A DNA stretch of 64,000 nt from an uncultured delta proteobacterium (GTDB taxonomy: Bacteria; Desulfobacterota; Binatia; Binatales; Binataceae), in contig CAWHNS010000001.1 of the NCBI GenBank assembly GCA_963830715.1, forward strand, positions 70,192 to 134,191. The letters are read 5' to 3'. Both the position numbers and the translations under genes were made by a program. This document shows positions 12,256 through 25,168 of the stretch, one piece after another. Every line of letters starts with the position of its first letter. Position 1 is the stretch's first letter. The notes under the pieces are model-generated. The model was given only the letters and a program-made list of their open reading frames with translations, had not been told where the DNA came from and ran no database searches.

Positions 12256-13254
12256 TCAGCCCGTGACGAGCCGTTCCATCGAGCGCAGGATCTTTGCGCG
12301 GCGTTCTTCGGGCGAGCCGGCGAGCGAGTTGAATTGCAGCGCGGTGGTCGTGACTCCCGCCTTTTCGTACTCGTTCAGGCGCCGCCGGCATTTCTCCGCG
12401 CTCCCGAAGACGAAGATCGATTCGACCATCTCGTCCGGCACTGCCGACACCGCTTTCTTGCGGTCACCCGCCTTCCACGCGTCCATCGCGAGGAGCGCTT
12501 CGTCCTCGTAGCCTATTTCCTGGAAGAACTTGTTGTACTGCGGGACGGTGAGATAGGCAGTCAGCGCGCGGCGCATCAGCGGAAGAATCAGCCCCTCGTC
12601 CTCGTCGACCGCGACCATAATCCGGCACACGACGTCGATCCGATCGGTATTCCGGCCGGCGGTTTTGGCGCCCTCGCGTACGCAGGCGAGCATCTGCGGC
12701 AGTTTCTCCGGAGTGATGAAGTTCGTGATCAATCCGTCGCCGATTTCGCCCGCCACGCGCAGCATCTTTTCCCCCTGCGCCGCGATATAGATCGGCGGCG
12801 GCGCGTCCACAGGCAAATCCATGCGGAAGCCATCGATCCTGACGGCCTTGCCGGCGAGGGTGACCTTCTCGCCACGGAAGATCGCGCGCAGCGCCGCCAC
12901 CGTCTCGCGCAACAGCGTCAGCGGCTTGCGATAAGGGACGCCCATCCATCGCTCGACGATCGGCGGCGTCGAGATCCCGAGTCCGAGCACGAATCTGCCG
13001 CCCGAGATTTGCTGGACGGTAGCCGCCGACATCGCGATCAGCGCCGGCGGGCGCGTGAACACCGGCACAATCGCAGTGCCGAGCCGCATCTTCGCCGTCG
13101 CGACCGCCGCCGCGGCAATCGGCGCGAACGCGTCGGGTCCGAAGGATTCGTAGGACCACGCGTCGGTGTATCCCAGGCGCTCCGCATGCTGCGCCAGCTC
13201 GATCATGTGCCGGTTGATGAAGGGATCGAACGAAAATGTAATTCCAAGTCGCAT
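12256..13254 (-). CDS. LLM-class (luciferase-like) flavin/F420-dependent oxidoreductase
   Basis: 332 aa with a typical LLM pattern: MRLG..F......ELAQHAERLGYD..W..E; GRF.LGLG. Confidence 0.85.
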   Translation of the reverse strand: MRLGITFSFDPFINRHMIELAQHAERLGYTDAWSYESFGPDAFAPIAAAAVATAKMRLGTAIVPVFTRPPALIAMSAATVQQISGGRFVLGLGISTPPIVERWMGVPYRKPLTLLRETVAALRAIFRGEKVTLAGKAVRIDGFRMDLPVDAPPPIYIAAQGEKMLRVAGEIGDGLITNFITPEKLPQMLACVREGAKTAGRNTDRIDVVCRIMVAVDEDEGLILPLMRRALTAYLTVPQYNKFFQEIGYEDEALLAMDAWKAGDRKKAVSAVPDEMVESIFVFGSAEKCRRRLNEYEKAGVTTTALQFNSLAGSPEERRAKILRSMERLVTG

Positions 13255-13332: not shown

Positions 13333-16223
13333 TCATTCCGCGCCGGAGAACTTCGCATTCAGCACTTGCGCGAGGTGCATCGGGCGGCGGCCGGGACAGA
13401 ACGCCCTGATCTGCGAGCGGCACGAGAACCCATCCGCGATCACGATCGTGTCGCGATCGCTCGCGTTGATCGCCGGTACCAGAATCCGCCCGGCGATCGC
13501 TCGCGATACGTCGAAGTGGCGCGCCTCGTATCCGAATGCGCCTGCCATCCCGCAGCATCCTGCGTCCAGCACGTCGAGGCCAAGCCCGCGTATCCTGCCG
13601 AGGATCGAAACCTCGTTGTCGAGTCCCGCGATCGCCTTCTGATGACAATGCCCCTGCAGGAGCGCGTTGCCGGCGATCGGCGGCGGCGCAAATTCCGGTG
13701 CTTCCCGCGCGATCAATTCGTCGAGCATCAGGCTCGATCGGGCGAGCGCCCCGGCCCGCGAATCGTTGGGGAACAGTCCGGGCAACTCGTCGCGGAATGT
13801 CAGGATGCAGCTCGGCTCGAGGCCGACGATGGTCGCGCCGCGCTCGGCCCGCGGACCAAGAACCTCAAGTATTTCTTTAAGTCGTCGCTTCGCCGTGGCG
13901 AGCATCCCCTGGTCGTAGAGAGGCCGGCCGCAACAAAGGTCGCGATCCGGAATCGTGACCCGGAAACCTGCGCGCTCCATCACCTCGACCGCGGCGATTG
14001 CGACCTCGGGCTCGAAGAAATTGGTGAAAGTGTCGGGGAACAGGATGACCTCGCGTCCCGAAGACGCCGCGGCGCGGCGGCTCCTGAACCAGGACCGGAA
14101 TGAGCGTGCCGCGAAGCGGGGGAACTCGCGCTCCGGATGAATTCCGATCGCGCGCTTGAAGATCGCCGCCCCGACCGAACCGTGCGAAAGCGCATTCGCG
14201 ATGCGAGGCGCAAGCTGCGCGATACGCGCCAGTTGATGGATGCGCCCGAAGAGATGGGCCGACATCGCTCGCGCATGTCGCTCGTGGTAGTGGGCGAGGA
14301 ATTCGGCCTTGTAGGTCGCCATATCGACCGTGGCCGGACATTCAGCCTTGCACGCCTTGCAGGAAAGACAGAGGTCGAGCGCCTCCGCGACCTCAGGGTC
14401 AACAAGTCCTCCCCGCAGCAGGTCTCCGCTGAGCGCCTCGAACAACAGCCGAGCGCGTCCCCGCGTCGAGTGCATCTCCTCGCGGGTCGCCATGTAGGAG
14501 GGGCACATCGTGCCGGCGTCGGTCTTTCGGCACTTGCCGATCCCCACGCATTTGAGCGCTGCGCCCGCAAGTCCGCCGTCGCCGCTGAAGTCGAAGTGAG
14601 TATCGACGGGACGGGGACGCAGAGCCGACAGGCGCAAGTGCGAGTCGAGCGGTTCGGGATCGACGATCACGCCGGGATTCATCATGCGATCCGGATCGAA
14701 GGCGCGCTTGAAGGCCACGAAGGCGTCCATCAGCTCGGAGCCGAACATTTTCGGCAGAAGTTCCGATCGCGCCAGCCCGTCGCCATGTTCGCCGGAGAGC
14801 GAGCCGCCGAATTCGACGACCAGGTCCGCGATCTCGGACATCGCAGCGCGAAAGTTCGCGATTCCCTCCGCAGTCGCAAGGTCGAAGTTGATCCGGCAAT
14901 GGACGCATCCTTCGCCGAAGTGTCCGTAGTAGGTCGCGGCTTCGAAGCTGTCGCCGCTCGAGCAGCGCGGCGAAACGTCTTAGGTACGCGCCGAGACTCT
15001 GCGGCGATACCGCCGCGTCCTCTGCGCCCGGCCATGTGCGCGGGTAGCCTCGAATTACCGCGCCGGCGCCGAGGCCGGATTCGCGCAAACGCCAGACCGC
15101 CTGCTGGTCGGCGGGATCGGCGACCAACACCGCGCCGGTGCACTCGCGAACCCTACGGGCTTGATCGACCAGCGCCTCGCCGCGATCGCGAAGTTCGTTA
15201 TCGCGATCGGCGCCGAGCTCTACGATCAGAAACGCGTGACCCGCGGGCATCAGCCGCATCGCCGCGCCCTGACCGCCCCTCGCTATTGCGAAATCGATCA
15301 GCTTGCGGTCGAAGCCTTCAAGCGCTTGCGGCCGATGCGCGAGAATCCAGGGCGTCTGGTCGGCGGCAAGGTACACGTCCTCGAAACCCATCACGACCAG
15401 GCAGAGCCGGCGCGGACGCGCGGCCAGCTTCAGCGTCGCGTTCAGAGTCACCGCGAGCGTTCCCTCCGAGCCTGCGACCGCGCGCGCCAGGTTAAAGCCG
15501 TTCTCAGGCAGGAGCTGATCGAGATTGTAGCCCGGATACTCGCCGCGGAATTTTCGGATACCGCTGCCGAACGAGGTCGCCATAGCGGTCGCGCAACTCG
15601 CGCAGAGTCGAGATGATCGCACGTCGCCTGTCGCCGGTCCGAGTGCCTGCGGCCGGATCGGCTCCGGCGATGTCAGCGCCATTCACTGCGGCGAGCCTGA
15701 GCCGCGTGCCGTCGTAGAGCGCGACCTCCATCGCTTCGAGATTGTCAACCGTCTTGCCGTAAGCGGCCGAATGCGCGCCGCACGAGTTGTTGCCGATCAT
15801 TCCACCGATCGTGCACCGATCTTTGGTGGTCGGGTCGGGCGCGAAGAACAAGCCATGGCGTGCCAGGGCGGCATTCAGGTGGGCCTGCACCACGCCCGGC
15901 TCGACCACGGCCAGCTTCCGATCGGCGTCGATACTTCGGATCGCGTTCATGTACTTGGAGAAATCCAGCACGAGCGCGGTGTTGCAGGTCTGGCCGGCGA
16001 GCCCCGTTCCGCCGCCGCGTGCGAGCACCGGTATCGCGTTCTCGCGCGCCAGCGCGAGACAAGTCATCACGTCGCCCTCATGACGCGGGATGACGACTCC
16101 AACCGGCACGCGCCGGTAGTTCGACGCGTCGGTCGAGTAGATCGCCTTGGTTCCCTGATCGAAGCGCACCTCGCCGTCGATCCGGCGGCGCAATTCGTCC
16201 TCGAAGGCCTTGGTCGAACTCAT
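13333..16223 (-). CDS. FAD-binding (GlcD/PCMH-type) + Fe-S + CCG-domain oxidase fusion; reading frame broken twice in this sequence
   Basis: The N-terminal part (16223-15504) has GGGTGLAG. The middle is in the frame of ORF 14399..15682. The C-terminal part (14841-13333) has CLSCKACKAECP and GCCGMAG. Junctions read ..RRVSG|YNLDQLLPENG.. near 15527-15533 and ..ALLER|GDSFEAATYYGHFGEGCVHCRINF.. near 14953-14962. Confidence 0.85.
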
Positions 16224-16420
16224 CTGAATGCGATCTTAATCGATGAGCGGCCCGCGCGCCCATCACGTCGCACAGATCGCGGGCAGGCCCTCGATCAGGG
16301 CGCCACTGACCCCGACGCTGCACTGGGACAGTTTTTATCGCGAGTTGACGGCCTTGACCCTGTTCGCGACGCCCACTAAACAGGAGTTCGCCCGATTGAT
16401 ACGGTGTCCGGAGGACTTCT

Positions 16421-17581
16421 ATGCCCCGTGCCTACACGATCACCGCTGATGCTATCGCGTCGGAGCGCCGCCGCGTTAACGATGACCTGTCGAAGTTCGA
16501 CATTTCCCGGGTCCTCAGGATGGACCGGCTCGAGTTGCGCCCGATGGATCTCCACGACGTTCATCTCAGGATTCTCGCGGTCTCGGCGGAACACAACGTC
16601 GATCATGCAGCGCTCGCCGACACGGTGAACATCGTCCAGTTGCGCGGCGGAAAAATTTATCCGGGCAATAGCGCGGTCGGCGAGGTCCTGGCCGTGGGCG
16701 CCGATGTGCGCACGTTCAAGCCGGGCGACATCGTGATAACGCACTGCAACGGTGAGCCGGACATCTACGGATACCCGCTGCGCATCTGGGCCTACGATCA
16801 GCCGGATTCCGTCGGCTGGTATGGAGAAGAGGCGATCGTCGGCGACTGGCAGATCATCCCGGCGCCGCTCAAGTGCGGCCTGAATCTGTGGCAGATCGCG
16901 GCGCTGCCGCTGCGCGCGCCGACCGCGTACCATCTATGGCGCCGCGGCCACGATATCTTCCGCCTCAAGGTGCAACGGGAGAAGCTCGCGCGATTGAATG
17001 TGCTGGCGTTTGGTGGCGGGGTTTCGGAGTTCTTCCTGATGCTCGCGAAGGCCGAGGGACATAGTGGCTTCTTCTGCTCCGGCAGCCCGGCTCGCCGCGA
17101 GTAGCTCGAACGGATCGGAATCGCGTCGATCGACCAGAACGTTTTCAACCGCTTTGCCACTCCCGACGATGTAAAGAATTTCAGCAAGGAGGTGAAGCGG
17201 CTCACCGGCGGCGAAGGGATGCACATCGTATGCGACATGCTGCGGGGCCTGGTGTTCCCGGCGGGCGTCGCCGCGCTGGCGCGGGCGGGTGTCAACGTGA
17301 GCGCGGGCTGGCAGCTCGAGAAAAAGATCAGCTATGACTCGGCGGGACTCGCGGTGCGCCAGATCACGCTCGACCACACGCACTACGAGACGATTGACGG
17401 CTGCCGCGCGGCGACCGAGTTGTACGGGACCGTGTTCCGCCCGACCGTCCATCGGGAGATCTACGCCTTCGACGACCTCCCGCGATGCATGCAGGAGATG
17501 CTGGACAATCAGCAGACGGGCATCCCCGTGGTTCGCGTGGCGTCCGAGATGCCCCGGTCTGTCCAGCCCCTGATAGCATAG
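16421..17581 (+). CDS. medium-chain dehydrogenase/reductase, enoyl-CoA carboxylase/reductase (Ccr/ECR)-like; interrupted by one in-frame TAG
   Basis: ORFs 16421..17104 and 17192..17581 are in the same frame, and homology continues straight across TAG 17102-17104 (..SPARRE*LERIGIASIDQ..). The segment RIWAYDQP.SVGWYGEEAIV....P......W.IAALPLRAPTAYHLW recalls the ECR block IWGYETN.GS.AE....P..L.WEEAA......TAYR.L. Confidence 0.65.
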
Positions 17582-17652
17582 GCGCGTCGGGGGTTCGCGG
17601 CGCGGCGCCTTCGGAGCTAGAATCGGGGACCACAAGCGACGGCAGCAAAATT

Positions 17653-18120
17653 ATGGCAGTGCGAAAAATCGAGCGCGGACACTACTTCGAGGATTTCGAG
17701 GTAGGCCACGTGTTCAAGCATCACTGGGGCCGGACCGTCAACGAGGGCGATAACAGCCTGTTCACCAGCGTGACGATGAACTTCAACCCGATCTATTTCA
17801 ATCGCGAGTACGCGCGGAAGATGGGCTTCCGCGACGTGGTGGTCAATCACATGCTGGTGCTCAACGTGGTGTTCGGCCTTTCGGTCGAGGACCTCAGCGA
17901 ACGCGCAATCGCGCATCTCGGCTACGAGAAACTCAAGTTCCTCGAGACCGTATATCCGGGCGACACGCTGACCTCGCAATCCGAGGTGCTCTCCAGGCGC
18001 GACACCTCGCGGCCGGACCGCGGCGTGGTCAAATTCCGAACCACCGGCTTCAACCAGAACGGCCGCAAGGTGCTCGAATACGAGCGGCCCGTGCTGGTCC
18101 GCAAGCGAACCGTGGAGTAG
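17653..18120 (+). CDS. MaoC-family (hot-dog) enoyl-CoA hydratase/dehydratase
   Basis: 155 aa with a typical MaoC N-terminus (YFEDFEVGHVF..H.WGRTV.EGDN.LF). ATG 17653 lies within ORF 17485..18120. Confidence 0.85.
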   Translation: MAVRKIERGHYFEDFEVGHVFKHHWGRTVNEGDNSLFTSVTMNFNPIYFNREYARKMGFRDVVVNHMLVLNVVFGLSVEDLSERAIAHLGYEKLKFLETVYPGDTLTSQSEVLSRRDTSRPDRGVVKFRTTGFNQNGRKVLEYERPVLVRKRTVE

Positions 18121-18127
18121 ATGCGCG

Positions 18128-19296
18128 ATGCCTTTTGTTACGCCGGAGCATGAGGAAATCCGCCGCTCGGTGCGCGAGTTCGTCGAGCGCGAGGTCAAGC
18201 CGATCGCCAACGGTCTCGACCGTCGCAACGAGGAGATTCCGGAGGCTGTGCTCAGGAAGATGGCGGAACTGGGCTACTTCGGAATCATTTTTCCCGCCGA
18301 GGACGGCGGTCTCGGCCTCGATTACATTGCGATGGCGATCGTGACCGAGGAACTGTCACGCGGATGGCTCTCGGTGGGGTCCGTGATGACCCGCAATCTG
18401 ATCACGGGCACGCTGATCACCGCCAACGGCACCGCCGAGCAGAAGAAGCATTTTCTGCCGCGGATCGCGCGCGGCGAGTTGATGACGGCGGCGGCCTTCA
18501 CCAGACCGACGTCGGCTCCGACACCGCCTCGATCAAGACCCGCGCGGTCAGGAAGGGCGACGGCTACCTGCTCAAGGGCTCCAAGATGTGGTGCACGTTC
18601 GCCAATCGCGCGCACGTGCTGACCGTGATGTGCCGCACGGACCCGGACCCGCAGAAGCGCCATCGCGGGCTCTCGCTGCTGCTTTTCGAGAAAAAGCCCG
18701 GCAACGATTTCATGCCGCCCCAGCTCACCGGCGAGCCGATTCCCACGATCGGTTATCACGGAATGAAGAGCTTCGGTCTCGCCTTCGACGACGCCTACGC
18801 GCCGGCCGCGAACCTGATCGGCGGCGTCGAGGGGCGCGGCTTCTACCAGCTGATGGCGACCTACGAGTCGGCGCGAATCCAGACCGCGGCGCGCGGCGTG
18901 GGCGTTGCGCAAGCGGCTTATGAATGCGCGGTCAAGTACGCGCGCGAGCGGACCCAGTTCGGGCAACCGATCGGCAACTTCCAGGTCATCAAGCACAAGC
19001 TCGCGCACATGGCCGTCGAGATCGAGGCGGCGCGCCAGCTCGCCTATTTCGCGGCCTCGCAGAAGGACACCGGCAAGCGATGCGACTACGAGGCCGGGAT
19101 GGCCAAGGTGTTCGCGGCCGAGATGGCCGAGCGGGTGACGCGCGAGGCGATGCAAATCCACGGCGGGTATGGCTATTCGATGGAATTCGATGCGCAGCGC
19201 TATTGGCGCGACGCGCGCGTGCTCTCGATCTTCGAGGGGACCAGCGAGATCCAGCTCGAGGTGATCGGCCGCCGGATCATGGAACAGACCGAATAG
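18128..19296 (+). CDS. acyl-CoA dehydrogenase; one frame break in this sequence
   Basis: The N-terminal half is in ORF 18128..18622 and the rest in ORF 18364..19296. The junction ..AAAFT|(E)TDVGSDTASIKT.. lies near 18498-18506. The C-terminal FEGTSEIQ motif is present. Confidence 0.85.
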
Positions 19297-19369
19297 ACAG
19301 AAGTTACCACAGATGAACACAGACAAATATTTGGTGTCCATCTGTGTTCATCAGTGGTTACTGCTGTCT
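19296..19369. repeat. ~74-bp imperfect palindromic intergenic element (..GTTACCACAGATGAACACAGAC..loop..GTCCATCTGTGTTCATCAGTGGTTAC..)
   Basis: The arms are reverse complements with a few mismatches. It is AT-richer than its surroundings and sits between the ACAD stop and the next MaoC gene. It resembles the CACAGATGAACACAGA-type REP-like repeats I recall from other GC-rich genomes. Confidence 0.6.
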
Positions 19370-19384
19370 CTGTGAAAGGGCGCA

Positions 19385-19864
19385 ATGGCTATTACCAGCG
19401 AAGGCAGCTATTTTGAGGACTTCACGGTCGGCGACACGCTCGTCCATGCGCGCGGGCGGACGATCACCGAGGCTGACAATCACATCTTCACCTCGCTGGT
19501 GATGAACACCGCGCAATTGCATTTCAACCAGGACATGGTGGACAAGGACCCAAAGAATTACTACGACGGACGCCGCGTGGTGTACGGCGGCGTGGTGCTG
19601 GCTTTCGTGGTCGGCCTCGCCTCGGAGGACACCAGCGAAAATGCGCTGGCCGAGTTGGAGATGGACCACGGACGGCATACCAATCCGGTATTTCACGGCG
19701 ACACGATTTTCGCGGAATCGACCGTGATCGAGAAGCGCGACTCCGATCGCGCCGACGCGGGAATCGTCAAGTTCAAGCTGGTCGGCAAGAACGCCACCGG
19801 CCAACCCGTGGTCGAGATCGAGCGCAGCGTCCTCGTCAAGCGGCGATCGCATTTCAGGGAGTAG
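19385..19864 (+). CDS. MaoC-family (hot-dog) enoyl-CoA hydratase/dehydratase, second copy
   Basis: 159 aa: YFEDFTVGDTLVHARGRTITEADNHIFT.. A paralogue of 17653..18120. Confidence 0.85.
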   Translation: MAITSEGSYFEDFTVGDTLVHARGRTITEADNHIFTSLVMNTAQLHFNQDMVDKDPKNYYDGRRVVYGGVVLAFVVGLASEDTSENALAELEMDHGRHTNPVFHGDTIFAESTVIEKRDSDRADAGIVKFKLVGKNATGQPVVEIERSVLVKRRSHFRE

Positions 19865-19926
19865 GAACATCCGGGGCCGTCGCGCGGTCGCATTGTAGCT
19901 ATAGTCAATCGGGAGAACACTTCATC

Positions 19927-20964
19927 ATGTACGTATTGGACAACGGCAACCGTTTCGTAATCCCGCGCACCGAGCTGACCTATCCCGGCCACAGCGCGAA
20001 GCTCCATCAGAATGCCGCCGACGCGATCAAATCGCCGGTCGATCATGTGATGGCGGATTTCGAGGACGCCTGCCCCTATGAGTTCAAGGGCGAGAAGAGC
20101 CGCAAGGCGATGGTCGAGGCGTTCAACACGCTCGACTTCGGCAAGAAGATCGTAACGGTGCGGCCCAACAACATCCACTCGCCGTTTTTCAAGGGCGACA
20201 TGGAGGCGGTGGTGCTGGGCGCCCCCAATCGCTTTCACGGCATCGTGCTTCCGAAGGCCCGCGGCGCCGAGGACATCAGGAAGCTCGCGAGCGTGCTGGA
20301 CGAGCTCGAGCGGCGCGGCGGATGGAAATACAAGATTCAGATCGAGGCCCTGATCGAGACTCCCCAGGCGCTGGTCCACGCCTACGACATCGCGACCGCA
20401 TCGGACCGGATGTGCGGCCTCATCTTCGGCATCGCCGATTTCGCCGCCGGCATCGGAGTTCGCGAGATCGTCGAGAACCAGAACCAGAATTTCCACTACG
20501 CCAAGCAGGCAACGGTGGTCGCAGCCAAGGCCGCCGGCCTCCATGCCGTAGATAATGTCTACTTGCGGTTATGGCGGGCCGAGGACGCGCCGGATCGGAT
20601 TGCCGAATTGCAGCGCGGACTTCGCGAGAAAAACACCGGCGCCGCCAATCTGGGCATGGACGGCACCTGGGTGATCCATCCGCAGCAGGCCGAAATCGCC
20701 AACGCCTGCTTTACCCCGACCCGCGAGCAGGTCGATGAAGCCCGTCGCGTCGTCAGGCTCTACCACGAGAAGGGCGGCGGCTCGATGGCCGACCCGAAGT
20801 CCGGCGAAATGATCGACGAAGCGACCATCAAAATGGCGCTGATGGATCTCGCCAAGGGCGCGCAGGCAGGTATCGTAAGCGACGAGGAACTGAAGGAGTG
20901 GTCCGCGAAGAGCCGCGCCGTCACCGGCTATGACATTCTGGAACTGATGCGCCGCGTGGCGTGA
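19927..20964 (+). CDS. HpcH/HpaI-CitE family acyl-CoA lyase (malyl-/beta-methylmalyl-/citramalyl-CoA lyase-like)
   Basis: 345 aa. Size and block order resemble recalled Mcl-type lyases (..DFEDA......K...R..V......FG...V.VR.N...; C-terminal ..G.MID.AT.K.A..). Confidence 0.7.
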   Translation: MYVLDNGNRFVIPRTELTYPGHSAKLHQNAADAIKSPVDHVMADFEDACPYEFKGEKSRKAMVEAFNTLDFGKKIVTVRPNNIHSPFFKGDMEAVVLGAPNRFHGIVLPKARGAEDIRKLASVLDELERRGGWKYKIQIEALIETPQALVHAYDIATASDRMCGLIFGIADFAAGIGVREIVENQNQNFHYAKQATVVAAKAAGLHAVDNVYLRLWRAEDAPDRIAELQRGLREKNTGAANLGMDGTWVIHPQQAEIANACFTPTREQVDEARRVVRLYHEKGGGSMADPKSGEMIDEATIKMALMDLAKGAQAGIVSDEELKEWSAKSRAVTGYDILELMRRVA

Positions 20965-22914: not shown

Positions 22915-25168
22915 TCACTTGGTGTCGAATTCGAAGACCATCTCGGTGAGTTTCTCGCCGTTTCCGCTGGCCAGATAGAGGTTCAGGCTGTCGAGGTACA
23001 TTTCTATCAGCCGGTCCTCGCTCCCGCGTTCCTTCATCCGGAGTTCCTTCAGCACCAGCAGTTCCTCGACCGCGCGCCGATGTTCTTCCCGCGCTATCAA
23101 CTCACGAACGCCGGCGAAGCGGCGATAGAAAGCCGGATCGACGCCGTCGCTCGTATGTCCGACGACTTCCACGACCGGCAACTTCTCGTCCTTGCCCTTC
23201 ACTTTCACCAGTCCTATTTCGCGGACGATGTAGCCGTCGGCGCCGGCCTCTTGCAGGGTGTTCTTGCTGGCCAGCAGATGGACATCGAATTTGCGCGTGA
23301 GGCCTTCGAGCCGCGAGGCGAAGTTCACGCAGTCACCGATCACCGAATAGTCGAAGCGCGATTCTCCGCCGAGATTCCCCACCACCGGGTCGCCGGTGGC
23401 GATTCCGACCCCGATGTCGAAGTCGGCGAAGCGCAGATCTTCCTTCCTCAGGCGGGCCAGTTCGGCGAACATCGCCAGCGCCGTATCGATCGCGTGCCTG
23501 GCGGGATTCTGAACTGCGGCGGGCGCCCCCCAGAACGCCATGATGGCGTCGCCCATCAGCTTGTCCACCACCCCATCGGCTTCCAGAATCAGGTCGAGCA
23601 TGCGGGTGAAATAGACGTTCAACTCCGTGATCAACGCCTCCGGAGACTCGGCCTTCTCGGCGCGCGAGGTGAAACCCTGGATGTCGGCGAACATGACGCT
23701 CATGTGACGGCGATCGCCGCCCAGCTTGAGGCCCTCGGGATTGTCCACGACACTCGCGATGACCTCGGGATTCATGTAGTGCTCGAACGCGTGGCGCAGA
23801 TGGCGCTTCTCGCGGATCTCGGTGAAGTAACGAAAGCTGGCGACCGCCACGTACACCGCGAGTTGGACCGTCAAGGGGAAAACGATGCCCAGCACGGCGC
23901 CGCCGTCCGCCAGCCGATACCTCGCATACCCGATGTAACCTCCGGCGGTCACGAGGAAGGCGAGCGCGGCCATCGCCGGGGGCAGATGCGCGACAGCAAA
24001 GCCGAGCGCGAGAGCCAACAGCAGCGAAACAATCCACTGCTCGGACTCGGTCGCCTTGGTGCGGCGGATGAAATCGCCGCGCAGGATATTGTCGATGGTG
24101 TTGGCGTGCACTTCGACGCCGGGAAAATCAGCGCCTACCGGCGTCACAACGCGGTCGCCAAGGCCGGTCGCCTCCAGGCCGACCAGGACGATCTTTCCGG
24201 CGAGGTCCGCAGCCGGCACGCGATGCGCGATCACGTCGGACGCGGAGTAGGTGCGAAAGGTATGCTTGGGGCCGCGGTAGTTCAGCAGCATCCTGCCCAG
24301 TTCGTCGACCGGAATGTCCTGATCGCCGACAGCCACGCCGACGACCCCGGTTTGGTTCATCAAAAGCGACATCGGAGCCTGACCGCGATAGGCGCTCACC
24401 AGCGCGAGGCTTAACGGAACCCAGTAGTGGCCGTGGAACTGCACGACCATCAGTTCGGTGCGCAACTCCCCGTCGCTGTCCTCATCGACAACGACATGAC
24501 CCGTTCCGCTCGCGGCAGACGCGATCAAATCGCGAGTCGGCAGATAGGCGTCGGCCGTCACCAGTTCGGGAGGCGGCCCGTCCGATCGCACCAGGTTATA
24601 AGCGAGTGGCGCCGGCTTGCGGATGGCGGTGGTGAATCCGTTGAGGGTCTCGACGCTCCTGCGGCCGCTGAGATGATGACTCGCGAATGCATAGCCGATA
24701 TAGGTCGAGCACCTGTTCGCGCAGCGCGCGCGCGAAAGCCTCATCGTTGTCGGGGCCAAGGCTGTCCTGCACCGCGGCGTCGCTTACGCCGGCGGTCTTC
24801 AAGCGGACCGCGATCGCATGGCGCTGGACATCCTGGTCGTCGGCTTCGCTGAAGATCAGGTCGAGGCCAACCACCGATACCTTGTAGTCCCTTAACGCGT
24901 CGATAAGCCTGGCGTAGACGCTTCGCGGCCAAGGGTAATGGCCGAGTTCCTTGATGCTGGCGTCATCGATCGCGACGACCACTACTTTCCCGGTTGTCGG
25001 CAGACTGCCCCGCGCCTGCATCCTTAAGTCATAGCCCTTCAGTTCCGCCAGCTCGACGCCTTGCCGATAACGCGATCCGATGGCGAACATCACGATCACC
25101 GCCATGACGCCCAGGATGGAAGCTCTCCAGCCTCCGCTGAGCCGCACTTTGCGTTTGGTAGCCGCCAT
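22915..25168 (-). CDS. CHASE2 sensor domain / class III adenylate-guanylate cyclase; one frame break in this sequence
   Basis: The N-terminal TM plus CHASE2 start is in ORF 24596..25168 and the rest in ORF 22915..24759. The junction ..ALREQ(V)|STYIGYAF.. lies near 24703-24716. Cyclase motifs VMFADIQGFTS and GDAIMAFWGAP are present. Confidence 0.85.

Follow-up and report, generated by a model that had tools for sequence, protein, structure and literature searches.

The five co-directional genes on the + strand at positions 16421-20964 of the window (i.e., the whole stretch of 64,000 nucleotides that was analysed, from a soil bacterium of the Binataceae) probably encode, as judged from sequence comparison, a lower ethylmalonyl-CoA (EMC) module whose architecture is specific to Binatia and which follows the gene for a highly divergent enoyl-CoA carboxylase/reductase-like enzyme. 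EMC genes have already been reported in Binatales on the basis of KEGG annotation, and the pathway was predicted earlier for the Binatota. For the architecture and the clade of divergent reductases, no description was found in the literature searched. The features discussed are:

12256..13254, - strand: F420-dependent LLM oxidoreductase, adjoining the FAD/Fe-S gene (TIGR03841 match of the orthologue)
13354..16232, - strand: YdiJ-like FAD/Fe-S 2-hydroxyacid dehydrogenase, divergently oriented, split over three frames (profile match of the orthologue)
16421..17581, + strand: ECR-like reductase (MDR) of a 386-aa family, with an in-frame TAG (Pfam ADH_N, ADH_zinc_N)
17653..18120, + strand: MaoC1, hot-dog counterpart of the N-terminal half of mesaconyl-CoA hydratase (Mch) (PDB matches, residues)
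18128..19296, + strand: short Mcd-like acyl-CoA dehydrogenase (ACAD), frameshifted (PDB match 6ES9, residues)
19296..19369, + strand: strong hairpin of ~74 nt, inserted between ACAD and MaoC2 (RNA fold)
19385..19864, + strand: MaoC2, hot-dog counterpart of the C-terminal half of Mch, which is the catalytic one (PDB matches, residues)
19927..20964, + strand: malyl-CoA-lyase-like CoA-ester lyase, 345 aa, lid domain at the C terminus (Pfam HpcH_HpaI)

Organization of the gene cluster

The gaps between MDR, MaoC1, ACAD, MaoC2 and lyase are 71, 7, 88 and 62 nt, in line with the 6-90 nt given in a preliminary description of this DNA, which also correctly stated that the locus holds no mutase, epimerase or CoA-transferase. 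The five-gene arrangement recognised there stands, but only three of the five ORFs are intact, MDR and ACAD being broken in the assembly, a disruption on which that description was silent. The order MaoC-ACAD-MaoC-lyase was found upstream of most of 80 related Binataceae loci, and within the genus all five genes are syntenic in four genomes and one short-read contig. This recurrence, and the synteny, which extends over many genomes, show that the genes do not lie together by chance.

The lower module

The intact orthologue of the ACAD finds its best PDB match in methylsuccinyl-CoA dehydrogenase (Mcd; 6ES9, 383 bits, residues 172-550), while other ACADs score at most 342 bits against it. The ACAD shares 49% identity with the PdMCD core and retains the Mcd residues S248, R252, A285, F287, Y375, T418, R421 and E535, and thus the Mcd-specific C2-methyl pocket (Ala285, Phe287). 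R376 and E380 of Mcd are replaced by His and Ser, respectively, leaving two of the three arginines. The protein does not have the N-terminal extension of Mcd and intact orthologues are 385-389 aa long; the normal size of ~390 aa noted before is therefore right, although in the window it holds only if the frameshift is read through.

Each MaoC protein aligns with a different half of Mch. MaoC1 (100 bits against Pfam MC_hydratase) matches residues 3-150 of 8HGN and 4-152 of 4E3E best (E about 1e-36) and retains F71, S79 and R142 of MeMeaC, whereas the best-scoring stretches for MaoC2 are residues 195-316 of 4E3E and 193-315 of 8HGN, and this protein retains the catalytic N226 and H231 plus Y248 and G249. 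The active-site residues of the two are complementary, each protein holding its own share, and the hydratase does appear as two separate single hot-dog genes, as described previously.

Among PDB entries the lyase is closest to Mcl (4L9Y, 112 bits), followed by 5UGR (108), 4L7Z (95), CLYBL (62), RipC (49) and CitE (48), so that its nearest relatives are malyl-CoA lyases and not citrate-lyase beta subunits. It retains all the catalytic residues of MCLR (E44, D45, R76, E141, D168) and D299 of the lid, and its identity is 79-90% within Binataceae and 71-79% within the class, although it is only 30% identical to characterised Mcl1. The genome encodes another lyase, at 43-46% identity to Mcl1/MclA, within a paralogous MaoC-ACAD-MaoC cluster on contig C10, and this one could instead be the true beta-methylmalyl-CoA lyase. 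Further observations that speak against the EMC reading are the Mcd features missing from the ACAD (Arg376, Glu380 and the N-terminal extension), the higher score of the MaoC pair on C10 against the Mch Pfam model, and the fact that none of the cluster proteins reaches an NCBIfam equivalog cut-off.

In relatives, the gene context is that of the EMC pathway. Canonical Ccr (550-584 bits, cut-off 378) lies divergently beside MaoC1-ACAD-MaoC2-lyase in at least eight other Binataceae genera, and in three other Binatia families the lyase has as its neighbour a fused mutase of the Ecm-like kind that shares 47-53% identity with the mutase on C10. The preliminary description held that the substrate could not be named from sequence. 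Because the Mcd and Mch signature residues are retained, and because canonical ccr and an ecm-like mutase stand beside the module in relatives, we propose with fair confidence that the predicted substrates are (2S)-methylsuccinyl-CoA, then mesaconyl-CoA and then beta-methylmalyl-CoA.

The reductase and its relation to Ccr

The MDR is most likely related, though very distantly, to Ccr, the reductase that fixes CO2. Its alignment with a canonical Binataceae Ccr by hhalign has a probability of 97.7% (E 2e-12) and pairs N81, F170, E171 and H365 of KsCcr with N59, Y125, D126 and H321, which are invariant in the MDR family; the CO2-pocket positions thus read N/Y/D/H, with Asp standing for Glu171 of Ccr. 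In a maximum-likelihood tree the family is sister to Ccr (support 91/95), apart from the other MDR paralogues of the genome, although it sits on a long branch and long-branch attraction is therefore a risk for this placement. The best 15 Foldseek matches of an AlphaFold2 model are all ECR; the confidence of this model is modest (pLDDT 66) and reaches its minimum near the motifs. The phyletic pattern complements that of canonical Ccr, which is absent from all 15 MDR-carrying Binatia genomes sampled and present in 29 of the 70 others. In this genus the MDR takes the position of ccr, of which it is a genus-specific replacement rather than a conserved part of the module.

It is possible, if doubtful, that the MDR is instead an ordinary NAD(P)H-dependent reductase lacking carboxylase activity (e.g., an enoyl-CoA reductase, an acrylyl-CoA reductase or an alcohol dehydrogenase) whose position beside the module is incidental in this genus. 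With 46-70 bits it remains far below the TIGR01751 cut-off for the Ccr family (378.55), its identity to Ccr is merely 22-24%, and the substitution of Glu171 by Asp would also fit such an enzyme. Furthermore, in many Binatia the gene occurs in unrelated contexts, and Mch is nearby in only ~30% of the well-flanked loci outside the genus. However, the invariant Asn, Tyr and His at the CO2-pocket positions, the complementary distribution and the occupied ccr position speak against an ordinary reductase, and so does the repeated linkage seen in another phylum: in Myxococcota-labelled MAGs the neighbours of the MDR include an Mch-like gene and genes for an Mcl-like lyase and a fused mutase, together with pntAB and a CoA-ligase pair resembling malate thiokinase.

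Interrupted genes

The in-frame TAG of the MDR gene (17102-17104) is CAT in four congeners, coding for a His that is nearly invariant in the family, and the loss of one base after 18502 (ACC GAG CCC in congeners, ACC-AG ACC here) shifts the frame of the ACAD gene. Both breaks are best explained as errors in the consensus of a long-read MAG and not as signs of gene decay, since sibling long-read MAGs show breaks in other genes (among them the essential asd in G003), all five genes are intact in the short-read contig of the same genus, and Ka/Ks of the window copies (0.12 for MDR, 0.07 for ACAD) is close to the values among intact copies. That both are true pseudogenes of a decaying module seems unlikely: the TAG differs from CAT by two base changes, the 1-nt deletion lies outside any homopolymer, and the neighbouring FAD/Fe-S gene carries two frameshifts relative to both the congeners and the short-read contig, but MaoC1, MaoC2 and lyase are unbroken and share 87-92% identity with those of congeners, and the completeness of the genome is only 85% despite its mere 24 contigs.

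Proposed reactions and comparison with known pathways

In the proposed EMC sequence, the MDR would reduce, and probably carboxylate, crotonyl-CoA with NADPH, after which two enzymes from other loci, an epimerase and a B12 mutase (candidate mutase, G000:C10:40356-42566), would yield (2S)-methylsuccinyl-CoA. The short ACAD is predicted to oxidise this to mesaconyl-C1-CoA. MaoC1 and MaoC2 may together form a two-subunit mesaconyl-CoA hydratase producing beta-methylmalyl-CoA, with MaoC1 providing the carboxylate-binding Ser and Arg and MaoC2 the catalytic Asn and His of a shared active site, and the lyase would split the product into glyoxylate and propionyl-CoA. The earlier view of a variant C4/C5-dicarboxyl-CoA module is supported on all three points where it might have failed, i.e., the affiliation of the reductase, that of the lyase, and synteny.

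The predicted order of reactions (enoyl-CoA carboxylase/reductase, methylsuccinyl-CoA dehydrogenase, mesaconyl-CoA hydratase, beta-methylmalyl-CoA lyase) is that of ccr, mcd, mch and mcl1 in Rhodobacter sphaeroides, Methylorubrum extorquens and Paracoccus denitrificans, with which the cluster shares the Mcd, Mch and Mcl signature residues and, in sister genera, a canonical ccr beside the module. Unlike in these organisms, Mch is encoded by two genes flanking mcd, the lyase and the reductase have diverged to the identities given above, and Mcd has His/Ser at Arg376/Glu380 and no ~170-aa N-terminal extension; in PdMCD this extension stands in for the second dimer, so the short enzyme is expected to form a tetramer.

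The mcl-mch-mct-meh genes of the 3-hydroxypropionate bi-cycle in Chloroflexus aurantiacus likewise combine an Mcl-type lyase with Mch, and both MaoC proteins have 4E3E among their best matches. However, they include neither an ACAD nor an ECR, their Mch is a fused double hot-dog protein, and the window cluster has no CoA-transferase; in the C10 cluster, a family III CoA-transferase sits where the Mct-like enzyme would be. The itaconate cluster (Ich/RipB, Ict/RipA, Ccl/RipC) and Rv2498c-Rv2500c of Mycobacterium tuberculosis (CitE, MaoC, FadE19) share the combination of MaoC hydratase, CitE-superfamily lyase and ACAD, but the window lyase is of the longer Mcl type with a lid domain and its ACAD is Mcd-like. 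Degradation of free C5-dicarboxylates (itaconate, mesaconate, methylsuccinate, citramalate) in the manner of the Ich/Ccl cluster, with the lyase splitting (S)-citramalyl-CoA into acetyl-CoA and pyruvate, is very unlikely: RipB/Ich is the top NCBIfam match of both MaoC proteins (132 and 114 bits), the lyase matches RipC_Ccl (101 bits), characterised Mcl enzymes also cleave citramalyl-CoA, and the C10 cluster carries a PrpD-like gene with its CoA-transferase, but the scores are far under the cut-offs (340 and 375 bits), neither a CoA-transferase nor a ligase is encoded in the window cluster, Mch gives the best alignment for the MaoC pair, the C2-methyl pocket of Mcd is kept, and canonical ccr and the Ecm-like mutase adjoin the module in relatives. 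A hydratase composed of two separately encoded MaoC-type chains has a precedent in ChsH1-ChsH2 of M. tuberculosis, although its substrate is a steroid side-chain enoyl-CoA and no specific sequence relationship to the window pair was found.

Neighbouring genes and an intergenic hairpin

Throughout Binataceae the FAD/Fe-S gene accompanies the lyase as a conserved neighbour. Its intact 959-aa orthologue consists of a GlcD-like and a GlpC-like half and scores 529 bits against NF049975 (YdiJ; cut-off 1350). The LLM oxidoreductase, whose orthologue exceeds the TIGR03841 cut-off (270 vs. 213.65 bits), is conserved together with it.

The hairpin at 19296..19369 has a predicted folding energy of -41.1 kcal/mol (z -4.7), whereas congeners have a gap of merely 5-9 nt at this position. 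Fragments of its arms recur at a few other sites in the genome.

A probable module of the ethylmalonyl-CoA pathway

The cluster in the window comprises the following genes:

16421-17581, + strand: MDR protein, Pfam ADH_N/ADH_zinc_N
17653-18120, + strand: MaoC1, Pfam MaoC/MC_hydratase
18128-19296, + strand: acyl-CoA dehydrogenase (ACAD), three acyl-CoA dehydrogenase Pfam domains
19385-19864, + strand: MaoC2, Pfam MaoC/MC_hydratase
19927-20964, + strand: lyase, Pfam HpcH_HpaI

The preliminary description of five co-directional genes at 16421-20964 was right about their arrangement (gaps of 71, 7, 88, and 62 nt); two of the five, which it did not mention, are disrupted as assembled. None of the five proteins exceeds the cut-off of any NCBIfam profile. 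The cluster was also scanned for promoters, terminators, and Rfam families, with no useful result; the sole Rfam match is a spurious miRNA match to a hairpin.

The order MaoC1-ACAD-MaoC2-lyase is common to most of 80 Binataceae loci, and the divergent upstream neighbours that had been noticed in the window, a YdiJ-like FAD/Fe-S dehydrogenase and an F420-dependent LLM oxidoreductase, are found in Binataceae loci also. In at least eight other Binataceae genera, the FAD/Fe-S gene and MaoC1 are separated by a divergent gene for a canonical crotonyl-CoA carboxylase/reductase (Ccr), which scores 550-584 bits against TIGR01751 (cut-off 378.55) (e.g., G008:C1:1307014-1308204 on the - strand of a related genome, where MaoC1 starts ~350 nt further on). 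In three other Binatia families, represented by loci L019, L020, and L023 of genomes G029, G031, and G038, local tblastn over the loci compared showed that the gene adjoining the orthologous lyase gene encodes an acyl-CoA mutase of the Ecm-like kind. These mutases are 47-53% identical to one encoded on another contig, C10, of the window's genome (G000), which is itself just 40% identical to the Mcm-like mutase encoded beside the propionyl-CoA carboxylase genes of that genome. Furthermore, Binatales had been credited with ccr, ecm, mcd, mch, and mcl in a published KEGG-based survey. Together with the homologies of the individual proteins, the ccr and mutase neighbours in relatives and this survey lead us to conclude that the module is most likely the part of the ethylmalonyl-CoA (EMC) pathway formed by methylsuccinyl-CoA dehydrogenase (Mcd), mesaconyl-CoA hydratase (Mch), and malyl-CoA/beta-methylmalyl-CoA lyase (Mcl). 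The initial reading as a C4/C5-dicarboxyl-CoA module holds and is sharpened by the signature residues and by these neighbours. The EMC pathway itself is well established, and its occurrence in this phylum had been predicted before.

Some further features of these neighbourhoods were observed. The FAD/Fe-S gene adjoins the lyase gene even in Binataceae genera that lack MaoC-ACAD-MaoC at that spot, and locus L020 contains, beside the lyase and mutase genes, two MaoC genes in tandem and an ACAD gene that is divergent. Upstream of the window (G000 C1:11118-15573) a two-subunit B12 acyl-CoA mutase, with a frameshifted large subunit and a small subunit of 134 aa, is encoded between two ACAD genes; this may be a separate cluster for the rearrangement of branched-chain acyl-CoAs.

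A short Mcd-like enzyme, a putative split Mch and an Mcl-like lyase

The best solved relative of an intact orthologue of the ACAD is the Mcd of Paracoccus denitrificans (6ES9; 383 bits over residues 172-550), followed by FadE3 of Mycobacterium smegmatis (342 bits), a second Mcd (8CIW, 288 bits), and other acyl-CoA dehydrogenases (≤269 bits). Identity to the core of the P. denitrificans enzyme is 49%. With the diagnostic residues defined in the Mcd structure paper, the orthologue retains the C2-methyl pocket (Ala285 and the shifted Phe287, Mcd numbering), the carboxylate-binding Arg252 and Arg421, and the catalytic Glu535, as well as Ser248, Tyr375, and Thr418. The pocket, both arginines, and Glu535 are also present in the window copy, on both sides of its frameshift. 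Arg252, Ala285, and Phe287 are all absent from FadE3. The third arginine of Mcd is not kept (Arg376 is His, and its fixing Glu380 is Ser). The normal size noted earlier for the window ACAD is borne out by orthologues of 385-389 aa, which lack the homodimer-forming N-terminal extension of Mcd (~170 residues).

The putative hydratase is indeed encoded as two separate hot-dog proteins, of 155 and 159 aa, with the ACAD gene between them, and the pair does not have the single-polypeptide double hot-dog (~350 aa) typical of Mch/MeaC (PF19315). MaoC1 matches residues 3-152 of Mch (PDB 8HGN, 4E3E), while the top-scoring stretches of MaoC2 correspond to residues 193-316 of the same structures. According to the MeMeaC structure paper, the active site lies at the interface of the N- and C-terminal halves. 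MaoC1 retains Phe71, Ser79, and Arg142 of MeMeaC, and MaoC2 the catalytic Asn226 and His231 plus Tyr248 and Gly249; the position of N85, the contact of which is described in that paper as a backbone contact, is His in the window pair. Because the two proteins match complementary halves and keep the active-site residues, the pair reads as a putative split Mch, its halves flanking the Mcd-like gene, and we infer that the two chains would form a heterodimer. Fused Mch-like genes adjoin the same MDR family in Myxococcota-labelled loci. The scores of the MaoC proteins against the RipB/Ich profile (NF038241) are 132.5 and 114.3 bits, below its cut-off of 340.

The lyase was compared with the beta subunit of citrate lyase, to which it might have belonged, and is nearer to malyl-CoA lyases: it scores 112, 108, and 95 bits with the Mcl of Rhodobacter sphaeroides, Methylorubrum extorquens, and Chloroflexus aurantiacus, respectively, and gives weaker matches to CLYBL (62 bits), RipC (49 bits), and CitE (48 bits). 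In alignments to 4L9Y, 5UGR, and 4L7Z, the catalytic MCLR residues Glu44/Asp45, Arg76, Glu141, and Asp168 and the lid Asp299 are all kept. The C-terminal lid domain is present, with Asp as lid residue instead of the Glu of the malyl-CoA thioesterase group. Identity to Mcl1 and MclA is 30% (43-46% for the C10 paralogue). The protein is itself highly conserved, at 79-90% within Binataceae and 71-79% class-wide. It does not reach the cut-offs for CitE (TIGR01588; 126.8 bits, cut-off 443.4) or RipC-Ccl (NF038242; 101.5 bits, cut-off 375), and a look-up of its exact sequence returned no record.

A second module in the same genome

At C10:20564-26301 a PrpD-like gene is divergent from a paralogous cluster encoding an N-type MaoC, an ACAD, a C-type MaoC, a family III CoA-transferase, and a lyase. 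This cluster is conserved in G008 and G016, two related genomes that both carry canonical ccr. Its lyase (302 aa) is closer to Mcl1/MclA than the window lyase and its MaoC pair outscores the window pair with the Mch Pfam model. The C10 ACAD resembles Mcd less than the window ACAD does, with 42% identity to the P. denitrificans Mcd core and Leu in place of Phe287. To us the C10 cluster looks like a pathway for free C5-dicarboxylates, with the CoA-transferase as their point of entry. It is the window cluster that we read as the EMC module, because of its linkage to ccr and to the mutase.

The MDR protein and its relation to Ccr

Judged from its sequence, the MDR protein is not a canonical Ccr: against TIGR01751 (cut-off 378.55) an intact orthologue scores 46.2 bits and the window copy 69.6, compared to 584 for canonical Binataceae Ccr, to which it is 22-24% identical. 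Nevertheless, several lines of evidence connect it to the crotonyl-/enoyl-CoA carboxylase/reductases (Ccr/ECR). In profile-profile comparison (hhalign) it matches canonical Ccr with 97.7% probability (E 2e-12), and in this alignment, made at 22-24% identity, four residues that are invariant in the family (N59, Y125, D126, and H321) fall on Asn81, Phe170, Glu171, and His365 of the CO2 pocket of KsCcr; the source paper on KsCcr found carboxylation unaffected by Tyr in place of Phe170. The possibility that the protein groups with ordinary MDR dehydrogenases was addressed with a maximum likelihood tree, in which its family, on a long stem (2.68 substitutions per site), pairs with the Ccr clade as its sister (support 91/95) and is separate from nine other MDR paralogues of the genome. 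All top 15 Foldseek hits of an AlphaFold2 model are ECR chains; the model was used for fold ranking only, because its pLDDT is 66 and lowest around the motif loops.

Among 61 Binataceae genomes from 30 genera, the MDR gene occurs in the window's genus only, and it was therefore rejected as a conserved member of the module. It holds the slot that ccr has in sister genera, in reversed orientation. No Ccr match was obtained in the window's genus even at E 1e-30, and a search for canonical Ccr elsewhere in G000 returned the window MDR itself as best match. Across the class, canonical Ccr is present in none of 11 further genomes with the MDR gene and in 9 of the 13 comparison genomes without it. 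For the class and family samples together, Ccr is found in 0 of 15 MDR carriers versus 29 of 70 other genomes (Fisher p ~0.002, with non-random comparison genomes and non-independent lineages).

The MDR family counts >2000 homologues and is conserved at ~70% into Myxococcota-labelled MAGs; some members bear the JGI label crotonyl-CoA carboxylase/reductase. In 39 well-flanked loci outside the genus, an Mch-like gene lies within 4 kb of the MDR gene in 12 and an Mcl/CitE-like lyase gene within 10 kb in 10. A Myxococcales MAG locus (L210, 1370-14058) unites an MDR of the 386-aa family, a fused Mch-like gene, and an Mcl-like lyase in one cluster. Also encoded there are a pair of succinyl-CoA-ligase-like proteins reminiscent of malate thiokinase, a B12 mutase in fused form, and the PntAB transhydrogenase; no canonical ccr occurs within the 17 kb read. 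This looks like a cluster of the serine-cycle/EMC type. On other Binatia contigs the MDR gene has pathway-unrelated neighbours.

On this evidence the MDR protein is probably a working enoyl-CoA reductase of the EMC pathway; the chances that it also carboxylates seem to us about even. The wider proposal is that it would represent an uncharacterised, deep-branching ECR clade that has functionally displaced Ccr in several Binatia lineages and, alongside an Mch of two subunits and a pared-down Mcd that is presumably a tetramer, would form an alternative EMC set; we consider this about as likely as not.

A third kind of MDR was encountered in loci L131-L134 (Binataceae genomes G012, G019, G017, and G013), where it is encoded divergently beside the lyase gene with no adjacent MaoC-ACAD-MaoC. 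It has 348 aa, 180-290 bits against TIGR01751, 35% identity to canonical Ccr, a Cys-rich CxxCxxC...C stretch like the structural-zinc motif of alcohol dehydrogenases, and an apparent Gln at the Glu171 position, as read from the motif by eye and not from a computed alignment.

Implications

ECRs outpace all other known CO2-fixing enzymes and have found wide use in synthetic cycles for carbon fixation. A distant ECR clade with the CO2-pocket signature would, if real, offer fresh sequence space for the study and engineering of carboxylation. Likewise, an Mch that is split in nature and an Mcd that does without its N-terminal extension would reveal which features of the textbook enzymes are dispensable. 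A limited literature search, which is weak evidence of novelty, yielded no description of a split Mch around a short Mcd, the MDR clade, or a lyase clade of this kind, and none of Ccr having apparently been replaced by an ECR-like clade so distant from it. Binatia are abundant uncultured soil bacteria that are predicted to be methylotrophs and alkane degraders, and for their ecology the module firms up a route of glyoxylate regeneration. A further lesson is that, where a lineage has the divergent enzyme alone, its ccr will be overlooked or wrongly named by automated annotation.

Intactness of the assembled genes

In the source MAG (4.19 Mb, 24 contigs, estimated 85% complete), of which the window is C1:70192-134191, two genes of the cluster are interrupted. 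The MDR frame is crossed by an in-frame TAG at 17102-17104, and the ACAD frame switches where one base is missing after 18502 (ACC-AG ACC in the window, ACC GAG CCC in four same-genus genomes). Recoding of the TAG, as pyrrolysine or by read-through, was rejected because congeners carry an ordinary His codon (CAT) there; in a family alignment of 23 sequences, His is nearly invariant at this position.

Fourteen genes of a same-genus short-read contig (L105), which carries the five cluster genes in unbroken form, were compared with four long-read genomes. The window has four disruptions in this set: besides the MDR stop and the ACAD frameshift, the FAD/Fe-S gene is broken twice. Its long-read congeners have one (G004), at least three, including one in the essential asd gene (G003), and none (G001). 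Congeners are frameshifted relative to one another in further genes too. For the MDR gene, Ka/Ks of the window versus its congeners is 0.12, compared with 0.12-0.19 among intact copies; the corresponding values for the ACAD gene are 0.07 and 0.04-0.06. Given the breaks in congeners, the intact short-read contig, and these ratios, a consensus error is in our opinion the likeliest cause of both the TAG and the missing base, and we hold this with good confidence; very recent inactivation of the disrupted genes is a possible alternative. Stops and frameshifts in these long-read MAGs should not be called pseudogenes without inspecting the reads.

The FAD/Fe-S gene itself (13354-16232, - strand), encoding a YdiJ-like 2-hydroxyacid dehydrogenase, is spread over three frames with breaks near 15531 and 14948; it is intact (959 aa) in the short-read contig, G001, and G004. 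A gene at 22918-25021 (- strand), of 701 aa in G001, runs here across two frames near 24710, probably another assembly frameshift. Finally, a hairpin of ~74 nt (19296-19369; -41 kcal/mol, z -4.7) is inserted in the interval from the ACAD stop to the MaoC2 start, which is only 5-9 nt in congeners. Since fragments of its arms (19-25 nt) recur at five further sites in the genome, it could represent a small repeat of the REP or MITE type.
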